IMG/VR virus record: IMGVR_UViG_2851938318_000001
DNA from: a virus
Lineage: Duplodnaviria > Heunggongvirae > Uroviricota > Caudoviricetes
Length of the DNA stretch: 64,000 bases
Strand: one strand, 5' to 3'
Below the pieces are notes generated by a model. That model saw nothing but the letters and a program-made list of their open reading frames with translations. It did not search any database and was not told the DNA's origin. Shown here piece after piece: positions 37,444-38,432 of this stretch. Position 1 is the first letter of the stretch, and each line of letters opens with the position of its first letter. The position numbers and the translations under genes are program-made.

Positions 37444-37500
37444 ACCTGCTTCCGTATATATTTAATAAGTTACTTATTATTTATATATACAGAAGCAGGC
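37444..37500. other. Large AT-rich palindrome (17-bp arms) upstream of the GIY-YIG gene
   Basis: acctgcttccgtatatat ... atatatacagaagcaggc flanking taataagttacttatta. Confidence 0.4.
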
Positions 37501-37610
37501 ATAACTTGTCGTCTTAGACGCCCAGAAGCTCTACACTTTGAGCCTGTTAAATTGATTAAAAACTTATGTGTAAAATAGAACGCATTAGTCAGTAGCTAAG
37601 AGATGCAATA

Positions 37611-38378
37611 ATGGACGATTTATCGGTATACGCGAGATCATTGGATAAGGCTAAATACTATGTTTACTGTCTCTATGATACAGAAGACAAGATGAAAAGA
37701 CCGTTTTACATAGGAAAAGGCAAATCGACTCGTTGTCTCGATCACATCAAGTATCCCGATGACTCTCCCAAATCCATGCGGATCAAAGAACTTTTGGCTA
37801 ATAAAAAATTAGGCATAGATATTCTTCGTCATGGTATGGATGAAACCACAGCCAAACTTGTTGAGGCGACATGCATCGACCTTATGGGGGTCGGAGAGCT
37901 TACGAATAAGGTACGAGGAAGTGGTTCCATGATGGGCAGAATATCACTGGACGCCTACCATCACTTAGTGCTGCAAGAGGAAACTGAAATTGCTCCTGAG
38001 CACGCCGGTCTTGCCTTCCTGCTAAACAGCACCTACAAGTCAGGAATGTCCGCTCTGGCATTATATGAAGCTACGCGTGGCGTATGGGCAAAGGTTCCAA
38101 GAGACGAGAATCTCAAATATGCCTACGCTACATATGGTGGGCTAATAATGGAAGTTTATCAGATTGAATGCTGGGTCAAAGCCGGTTCTCAGCAGTACTT
38201 TACAAGGGATATAGCTCTTGGCCCCGACACAAAACGTTATGAATTTGTTGGCAGAATAGCCGATGAGCATATTAGAAAACTGTATGTAGGCAAATTAATC
38301 AAGAAGCCACCAAGCTACGGTAGCCCTTTTGTGAAGGTTGGGGTGGTTAGGACTGAACATAGTGTTAGCGCGGCATAA
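37611..38378 (+). CDS. GIY-YIG nuclease-domain protein with uncharacterised C-terminal domain
   Basis: N-terminal YYVYCLYD...PFYIGKGK matches the GIY-YIG motif; opposite strand to flanking replication genes. Confidence 0.55.
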   Translation: MDDLSVYARSLDKAKYYVYCLYDTEDKMKRPFYIGKGKSTRCLDHIKYPDDSPKSMRIKELLANKKLGIDILRHGMDETTAKLVEATCIDLMGVGELTNKVRGSGSMMGRISLDAYHHLVLQEETEIAPEHAGLAFLLNSTYKSGMSALALYEATRGVWAKVPRDENLKYAYATYGGLIMEVYQIECWVKAGSQQYFTRDIALGPDTKRYEFVGRIADEHIRKLYVGKLIKKPPSYGSPFVKVGVVRTEHSVSAA

Positions 38379-38394
38379 AGCTGACACTGTAGTT

Positions 38395-38432
38395 ATGCAT
38401 TGGCGCAATGTACGCGCCAATGCATGATTTTT
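38395..38432 (+). terminator. Rho-independent terminator after the GIY-YIG gene
   Basis: 12-bp stem atgcattggcgc/gcgccaatgcat followed by gattttt. Confidence 0.55.

Follow-up and report, generated by a model that had tools for sequence, protein, structure and literature searches.

A divergent PD-T4-3/CMoRE-family nuclease gene carried as an exchangeable cassette in an accessory slot of an SSU5-group phage-plasmid

Introduction

The defence nuclease PD-T4-3 was discovered by Vassallo et al. 2022 (PMC9519451), in whose main text its genomic context is not stated. It was renamed CMoRE by Liu et al. (Nat Commun 2026, PMC12923530), who describe it as a single-protein type IV restriction endonuclease that binds and degrades DNA containing 5-hydroxymethylcytosine (5hmC) or glucosyl-5hmC and spares DNA with cytosine or 5-methylcytosine. 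Here we describe a gene for a protein of this family in the IMG/VR virus record IMGVR_UViG_2851938318_000001, a 64,000-nt stretch of caudoviricete DNA that we refer to as the window. The gene (37611-38378 including the stop codon, plus strand) encodes a 255-aa protein, WP_000342417.1. An earlier reading of the letters and open reading frames (ORFs), made with no database searches and referred to below as the original prediction, suggested that it could be either a free-standing homing endonuclease or a nuclease effector of defence or exclusion.

According to Liu et al. (PMC12923530), CMoRE cuts at CN11/N9G, functions as a tetramer (a dimer of dimers) and defends directly and non-abortively against phages T2, T4 and T6. 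The GIY-YIG domain at the N-terminus is distinguished by an additional, third tyrosine ("GIYxY-YIG": Y17, Y19 and Y31). Between alpha2 and alpha3 "most" members have an autoinhibitory loop of 15 residues with four consecutive acidic residues, and CMoRE in which the acidic loop is neutralised cleaves unmodified DNA and is toxic. The C-terminal domain binds the modified base, and no structural homologue of this sensor was found by these authors.

A second enzyme, PD-T4-3Capno from Capnocytophaga (Rodriguez-Rodriguez et al. 2025, PMC12366544), is also a modification-dependent nuclease whose defence activity requires the GIY-YIG residues, and it cuts both glucosyl-hmC T4 DNA and mom-modified Mu DNA. 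In the same study, metagenomic PD-T4-3 homologues were nearly always tied to restriction of T4 and not of T4-GT7. PD-T4-3 is one of just two systems found to be active in a native clinical E. coli isolate, and in E. coli NILS69 it had no effect on plasmid vertical transmission.

In a preprint on the SSU5 group of phage-plasmids (bioRxiv 10.1101/2025.09.12.675607), DefenseFinder calls of PD-T4-3 and PD-T7-5 are listed for clade J members from E. coli and Shigella, and the accessible portion of that source does not state the position of these genes on the plasmids. We found no literature linking SSU5 with GIY-YIG nucleases, nor SSU5 with cohesive ends.

Results and discussion

The window protein is a divergent member of the PD-T4-3/CMoRE family

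The protein matches the PADLOC PD-T4-3 profile (PDLC04031) at E 1.3e-23 and 81.9 bits, with residues 11-231 aligned to positions 11-238 of the 256 in the profile. When phmmer was run against all PDB sequences, only the four PD-T4-3/CMoRE entries (9U7U, 9U7Z, 9U75 and 9U8D) were matched, at E 2e-15, with residues 12-230 aligned with 17-243 and both domains covered. The nuclease domain is 42-43% identical to that of CMoRE and the sensor domain 33-37%, and overall the protein is ~30-43% identical to the characterised enzymes. RefSeq names the gene only "LEM-3-like GIY-YIG domain-containing protein" or "hypothetical protein", NCBIfam has no match for the protein, and a public cluster with 372 members has exactly this protein at its head.

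The N-terminal GIY-YIG motif of the original prediction is present in an intact plus-strand frame. The GIY-YIG domain (37611-37925) is matched by Pfam LEM-3_GIY-YIG (PF22945) over residues 32-104 at E 5.5e-7 and 30.1 bits, just over the curated cut-off of 27; the N-terminus reads YYVYCLY...PFYIGKGK, within the N-terminal stretch KYYVYCLYDTEDKMKRPFYIGKGKSTRCLDH. In an alignment of 57 homologues Y17, Y19, Y33, R41, H45, E85 and N99 are invariant, giving the motif Y17-V-Y19 ... Y33-I-G35. The three tyrosines align with Y17, Y19 and Y31 of CMoRE, and R41 and E85 align with identical CMoRE residues, so they are probably the catalytic arginine and glutamate that Liu et al. leave unnumbered. At the intra-dimer interface, R80 and V92 align with the identical CMoRE residues R73 and V84, and L96 aligns with C88. 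The beta1-beta2 loop, which makes the inter-dimer contact in CMoRE, has a 2-residue insertion in the window protein.

The C-terminal domain (approximately residues 108-245; 37932-38345) had been described as uncharacterised and 170 aa long. A C-terminal domain is indeed there, at about 150 aa, and it is homologous to the modified-cytosine sensing domain of CMoRE. This homology comes from phmmer; a Pfam search with residues 108-255 gave nothing at E <= 10.

An AlphaFold2 model of the protein has a mean predicted local distance difference test score (pLDDT) of 83 and a predicted template modelling score (pTM) of 0.77. Its GIY-YIG domain has the secondary structure order beta-beta-alpha-alpha-beta-alpha, and the sole internal low-confidence stretch is the interdomain linker at residues 93-106, where the CMoRE crystals also have a disordered linker. 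The cassette has no second gene, and the single-component, two-domain architecture is that of CMoRE. Based on sequence, motif and fold, the window protein is a member of the PD-T4-3/CMoRE family.

Within this family it is a distant member, and several of its features count against reading it as an enzyme of the CMoRE type. The PD-T4-3 hidden Markov model gives canonical CMoRE 398.9 bits, compared with 82 for the window protein and 78-96 for three other members of its clade, and from these scores and the identities given above the window protein falls in a divergent sister clade that is clearly separate from the canonical CMoRE enzymes. The acidic autoinhibitory loop, one of the two CMoRE-defining features of Liu et al., is shortened. 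The alpha2-alpha3 lid is 5 residues shorter (HIK-----YPDDSPKS versus HMRGEVAAVDDDELLNN), and only D50-D51 are acidic, that is, two consecutive acidic residues instead of four. In the model the lid consists of residues 48-52 only, between helices 41-47 and 53-63. The short lid is found in 55 of the 57 clade members, most of which have one or two acidic residues there. Because Liu et al. report the loop for "most" members only, we regard the short lid as the mark of a variant and not as grounds for exclusion from the family. The 5hmC contact in the CMoRE crystal, the Y127 main-chain oxygen, falls in a poorly aligned region, and since this contact is a main-chain atom in such a stretch, modification specificity is not readable from the sequence. 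The global TM-score to 9U75 is low (0.38), which most likely reflects a different orientation of the two domains across the flexible linker in the model. Finally, the consensus scan described below gave no promoter for the nuclease gene.

Weighing these points, we consider it highly probable that the nuclease is a modification-dependent type IV restriction enzyme of the PD-T4-3/CMoRE family, carried as an accessory anti-phage cassette of an SSU5-like phage-plasmid.

The nuclease gene in its cassette is intact and under constraint

The gene belongs to a mobile accessory cassette of 933 bp (37500-38432, plus strand), which consists of a non-coding upstream region, the GIY-YIG/sensor ORF and a terminator. 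The upstream region (37500-37610, plus strand) moves with the cassette and has a putative ribosome-binding site, AAGAGA, 8-13 nt 5' of the nuclease ATG. The promoter and ribosome-binding site of the nuclease presumably both lie in this region. A consensus scan of 37300-38500 for sigma-70 promoters and intrinsic terminators called neither. When the upstream regions of Salmonella and Providencia homologues were compared with that of the window, only the ribosome-binding region was shared and there was no conserved promoter.

Downstream of the gene, the strong terminator of the original prediction takes the form of an intrinsic-terminator-like hairpin with a U-run after it (38391-38429, plus strand) that is supported by folding (free energy -25.1 kcal/mol, z -4.8, none of 200 shuffles as good). 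Its core is a perfect 12-bp stem (38395-38406 with 38414-38425), it starts thirteen nucleotides past the nuclease stop codon, and it lies within the variable segment, where only 2 nt separate it from the stop codon at which the convergent 119-aa gene ends. Since the consensus scanner listed no terminator, this call is one made from folding. On the minus strand, the 38391-38433 region has no U-run.

The GC content of the cassette (43.4%, compared with 47.1% for the window) is not an outlier, with 16% of same-size windows being lower. This is within the normal range and thus says nothing about the origin of the cassette. The ORF is intact in every copy that we examined, and the copies compared differ by three to four synonymous changes and one non-synonymous change. 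Against the 76%-identical homologues, the non-synonymous divergence (dN) is 0.17 and the synonymous divergence (dS) is saturated, so dN/dS is not computable. The nuclease gene is intact and under constraint.

The cassette occupies an accessory slot of SSU5-group phage-plasmids

The DNA of the window comes from an SSU5-group phage-plasmid. The region matches the SSU5-like E. coli phage-plasmid pRM9131-1 (E. coli RM9131, NZ_CP028430.1) at 100% identity and Escherichia phages CMS-2020a and PhiR41_1 at 98-99.7%, and the flanks of the nuclease slot are 84% identical to Salmonella phage SSU5.

All of the genes that flank the nuclease are on the minus strand, as had been noted. The left flank has genes for a primase and a DnaB-like helicase and, adjoining these two, a gene for a 249-aa backbone protein (36588-37337) that matches phrog_2500 at E 2.8e-113, a family with function unknown; the 249-aa protein has no match in Pfam or PADLOC. 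On the right (38431-39458) are a 119-aa gene (phrog_5111) and a 222-aa ParA-like ATPase (phrog_164, E 4e-51), and the 119-aa protein is presumed to be the ParA partner. The original prediction placed the nuclease in the replication module. It is an accessory cassette between replication-side and partition genes, while the 249-aa gene that it adjoins has no demonstrated replication function.

Relatives compared at this exact site differ in whether they have the nuclease, with alternative cargo between fixed junctions. When the window is aligned with relatives that have other cargo, the left-hand homology runs up to 37499-37509 and the right-hand homology begins again at exactly 38433, and therefore the variable unit is the whole of 37500-38432. 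The junctions are 37499/37500, at the end of a backbone palindrome, and 38432/38433, at the stop codon of the 119-aa gene of the par operon. Phage Cyrano has a DUF2971 protein (PADLOC candidate PDC-S31) in the slot, SSU5 has a DUF2971 protein and three small genes, CP054387 has a 567-aa KAP-family NTPase (PDC-S49), and pS2-S1K81-2 has DUF2971 together with PD-T7-5 (E 1.8e-139). Other E. coli and Klebsiella plasmids have four further sets of unknown genes. All 11 of the relatives without the nuclease gene that we examined (11/11) have other genes between the same junctions. A search of viral_contigs and genome_contigs for exact matches to an empty site (palindrome end, 0-30 nt, right junction) found none; this negative is limited, given that the genome collection has one genome per species.

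The cassette is not part of the conserved core. It is found in 155 PLSDB plasmids, and it is covered by only 123 of the 860 PLSDB plasmids that have the rep-par region. Among 5426 complete E. coli genomes, 106 (~2%) have the cassette, always on plasmids and never on the chromosome. The 249-aa backbone gene was found in 246 of these genomes, and 105 of the 246 have the cassette.

We also looked at 24 IMG/VR contigs, all with the cassette, that were picked by a right-junction anchor; this is a biased sample, used for comparing flank and cassette identity and not as a census. In five of the contigs the cassette is 98.2-98.9% identical to that of the window, compared with 80% for the helicase, 84% for the rep-like gene, 90-92% for the 119-aa gene and 84% for parA. 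Another three contigs have a mosaic structure, and their breakpoints lie around the slot. A cassette that is ~98% identical in diverged backbones indicates recent horizontal movement between backbones, for which homologous recombination within the conserved flanks is the simplest route. The cassette is accessory and horizontally exchanged, and the slot between the replication-side genes and the parA operon is a recombination-active defence slot.

At 76% identity, the homologues are solitary chromosomal genes in Salmonella (beside guaA) and Providencia (near mutS). We also noted that in the 141-kb plasmid NZ_CP062831.1 (5734-7741, L005 numbering) a backbone fragment has been captured between IS3, IS2 and IS30 elements. 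Of the 249-aa gene only a remnant is included, together with the palindrome, the nuclease cassette in intact form and the 119-aa gene, and the hosts of this fragment are large plasmids with CFA/III-type pilus genes. The capture accounts for the ~98.4%-identity matches on plasmids of 52-324 kb.

The palindrome at the left edge of the slot is a backbone element

The large palindrome that the original prediction gave as the upstream bound of the gene is present at 37445-37499 as a 55-nt AT-rich palindrome with GC clamps (CCTGCTTCYGTATATAT...ATATATACRGAAGCAGG), with 94% complementarity between its arms (37445-37461 and 37483-37499). The palindrome belongs to the backbone, has three copies per genome and forms the left edge of the slot, and it is not an end of the cassette. 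It is kept in every relative that we compared, SSU5 included, with or without the nuclease gene. The minus-strand RNA folds strongly (-30.8 kcal/mol, z -8.4, a value that none of 200 shuffles reached), with a UCUUUU run after it on that strand. As the hairpin at the end of the cassette has no U-run on the minus strand, we speculate that read-through from the par operon could run antisense over the nuclease gene as far as this palindrome, acting as a putative terminator, and might thereby keep nuclease expression low.

In pRM9131-1, the three copies are at ~28, 59 and 93 kb of the 117-kb circle, the other two being at 14601-14655 and 45736-45792 (L008 numbering). In Yersinia pestis pMT1-type plasmids the palindrome is ~95% conserved while the flanks no longer align (pG8786, 4001-4057 in L007 numbering). 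For both SSU5 and Cyrano, the ends of the linear genome record fall in the palindrome copy that lies upstream of the terminase genes, and the SSU5 record has the right arm at its start and the left arm and loop at its end. The palindrome may serve as a strong terminator where modules meet or as a site connected with packaging, or it may be no more than a break point of assembly. We considered it as a general marker of variable slots and rejected this, in that the region with the copy that follows the adenine methyltransferase gene shows synteny across all relatives and only the copy at 37445-37499 borders a variable slot.

Proposed mechanism and alternative explanations

For this clade we infer which modification the enzyme reads, how it oligomerises and in what pattern it cleaves, as well as its promoter and its role in defence. 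By homology to the solved E. coli enzymes, the C-terminal domain would bind DNA with hydroxymethylated or glucosyl-hydroxymethylated cytosine, as in T-even phages, and the N-terminal GIY-YIG domain (Y17, Y19, Y33, R41, E85 and N99) would then cleave the bound modified DNA. The enzyme is probably a homo-oligomer that would read two modified bases ~21 bp apart. Unmodified host and plasmid DNA would be left unbound, and hence no methyltransferase or immunity partner would be required. The cassette is swapped among related phage-plasmids, most simply through recombination in the conserved flanks of the slot, and the nuclease would shield the lysogen, and thereby the plasmid, from lytic phages.

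Given the divergence of the clade, the main residual uncertainty is a possible defence nuclease of the same fold with a different trigger, that is, one that responds to another modification (hypermodified pyrimidines or mom-type adenines) or to a cue other than modification, with self DNA spared without an acidic lid. The family score of 82 bits against 399, a sensor domain with only 33-37% identity to that of CMoRE, the lid that is shortened across the clade, and the plasticity of PD-T4-3Capno in cutting both T4 and Mu DNA (PMC12366544) would all fit such an enzyme. On the other hand, the architecture and catalytic core are conserved, metagenomic homologues nearly always restrict T4 and not T4-GT7 (PMC12366544), and there is no positive pointer to another substrate, so we put the chance of a different trigger as small. 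A good deal less probable still is the homing endonuclease of the original prediction, a free-standing enzyme of the Seg or I-TevI type that would cut a specific site in relatives without the gene and spread by repair-mediated gene conversion. A GIY-YIG catalytic domain in a solitary gene between conserved phage genes, present in some relatives and absent in others, is what one would expect of such an element. The C-terminal half of the window protein, however, has its counterpart in the CMoRE sensor by homology, with no NUMOD, IENR1 or helix-turn-helix module recognised by Pfam; the match to the homing-endonuclease family PHROG 314 reaches only E 0.28. In relatives that lack the gene the same junctions enclose other cargo and no empty site was found in the two collections, the 76%-identity homologues are solitary Salmonella and Providencia chromosomal genes beside housekeeping genes, and the characterised family members confer defence. 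This part of the original prediction is thus not supported, whereas its other suggestion, an effector of defence or exclusion, is supported, the protein being a full-length PD-T4-3/CMoRE homologue in a slot where relatives have other known or candidate defence genes.

The location of the gene between replication-side genes and parA, adjoining the large palindrome, could also suggest an accessory nuclease of the rep-par module, for example one that nicks or resolves the palindrome. We consider this highly improbable, since the gene is not core (123 of the 860 related plasmids and 105 of the 246 E. coli genomes with the backbone gene), plasmids with unrelated genes in its place replicate normally, the palindrome is conserved independently of it and also found at two other loci, and PD-T4-3 did not affect plasmid vertical transmission in E. 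coli NILS69. We give just as little credence to a functionless passenger, in which case the gene would be a remnant, inactive or silent, that travels with the par region. Such a remnant would be in keeping with the lack of a detected consensus promoter and with a gene that faces the convergent par operon and is possibly exposed to antisense read-through, but the ORF is intact in all copies examined with mostly synonymous substitutions, all of the catalytic residues are invariant, and the cassette is found at 98-100% identity across diverged backbones and is kept even in the IS-flanked fragment on unrelated virulence-type plasmids. A PD-T4-3/CMoRE-family type IV restriction enzyme is the explanation that we retain.

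Comparison with described systems

The window protein shares with the CMoRE/PD-T4-3 of E. coli APEC O1 and O157:H7 a single gene for ~250 aa on mobile DNA with no methyltransferase partner, as well as the third tyrosine of GIYxY-YIG, the conserved arginine, glutamate and asparagine, the flexible linker and a homologous C-terminal sensor. It differs in having DD in its lid where CMoRE has DDDE or DDDD, in lacking the HVIH insertion and, besides the beta1-beta2 insertion, in having a 4-residue insertion in the sensor. PD-T4-3Capno is similarly a divergent PD-T4-3 homologue, 48% identical to the founder enzyme and still modification-dependent (PMC12366544), and its activity at this level of identity indicates that function survives substantial divergence; it differs from the window protein in that cutting of both glucosyl-hmC T4 DNA and mom-modified Mu DNA has been demonstrated for it. 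The homing endonucleases I-TevI and T4 Seg have modules for sequence-specific DNA binding, and their targets are cognate, unmodified sites in genomes that lack them, in contrast to the window protein with its CMoRE sensor.

The same logic of a modified-cytosine reader coupled to a non-specific nuclease with no cognate methylase is seen in VcaM4I and other PUA-like/EVE-HNH enzymes, in the McrB N-terminal domains, and in PvuRts1I/AbaSI and GmrSD. The nuclease fold of these other type IV enzymes is HNH, PD-(D/E)xK or McrC, compared with GIY-YIG here, and the likeness of the window sensor to their readers, as judged from the predicted model, would be a remote one. At the level of the locus, the slot resembles the P2 old/tin locus (Vassallo et al. 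2022), where a fixed backbone position holds alternative defence genes in different relatives. The SSU5-group preprint shares with our data the listing of both PD-T4-3 and PD-T7-5, and differs in that the accessible part gives no on-plasmid position.

To our reading, then, the solved PD-T4-3/CMoRE family was already known, as was, from the listing in that preprint, the occurrence of PD-T4-3 on SSU5-group phage-plasmids. Our additions are the precise limits of the cassette, the recognition of the slot as a hotspot, backed by direct evidence of cassette exchange, and the short-lid sister clade.

Other features of the window and of pRM9131-1

A second variable region lies just past parA (39634-41888). 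In the window it has an IS3-family IS1203 element (two ORFs with a frameshift) and a DUF1778/GNAT toxin-antitoxin pair of the TacA/TacT or KacAT type, and at this position PhiR41_1, SSU5 and pS2-S1K81-2 hold other small genes. Within the lowest-GC stretch of the window (~29%, compared with 47% overall) is a 302-aa ORF at 26326-27234 on the plus strand, with a full-length match to phrog_35492, whose function is unknown. This ORF may be another foreign cargo gene. PADLOC gave no match for it, and nothing useful for the DUF1778/GNAT pair or for the other window ORFs that were tried. A search of 36500-39700 against Rfam at E <= 1 gave no match.

Outside the window, at 26759-30050 and 2638-6781 (L008 numbering), pRM9131-1 has chromosomal-type apbC and metG genes, a ribonucleotide-reductase alpha gene that is broken by an IS91-family element, dfrA51, a thymidylate synthase gene and a phage adenine methyltransferase gene.

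Conclusions

The nuclease gene is a real but ordinary feature of its phage-plasmid, and it leaves current concepts unchanged. There is a more far-reaching version of our reading which we consider unlikely. In it, the short-lid sister clade of CMoRE may read phage modifications other than 5hmC and glucosyl-5hmC, or may protect self DNA without an acidic loop, and the sensor may be a highly diverged PUA-like (ASCH/EVE/YTH) reader, in which case CMoRE would be linked to the wide class of type IV enzymes that combine a reader with a nuclease. The slot itself may be defined by the thrice-repeated palindrome that coincides with the deposited ends of SSU5, which would hint at a structural or recombinational role of the palindrome in cassette turnover.

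For functional annotation, the best description of the gene product is a type IV restriction enzyme directed at phages whose DNA has modified cytosine. SSU5-group phage-plasmids are common in clinical E. coli, Shigella and Salmonella, and the contents of the slot are relevant to predicting the plating of therapeutic phages of the T-even type on strains with these plasmids. Its short lid makes the clade a natural test case for the autoinhibition model proposed for CMoRE, and the clade is a possible source of enzymes with altered specificity for the mapping of 5hmC.

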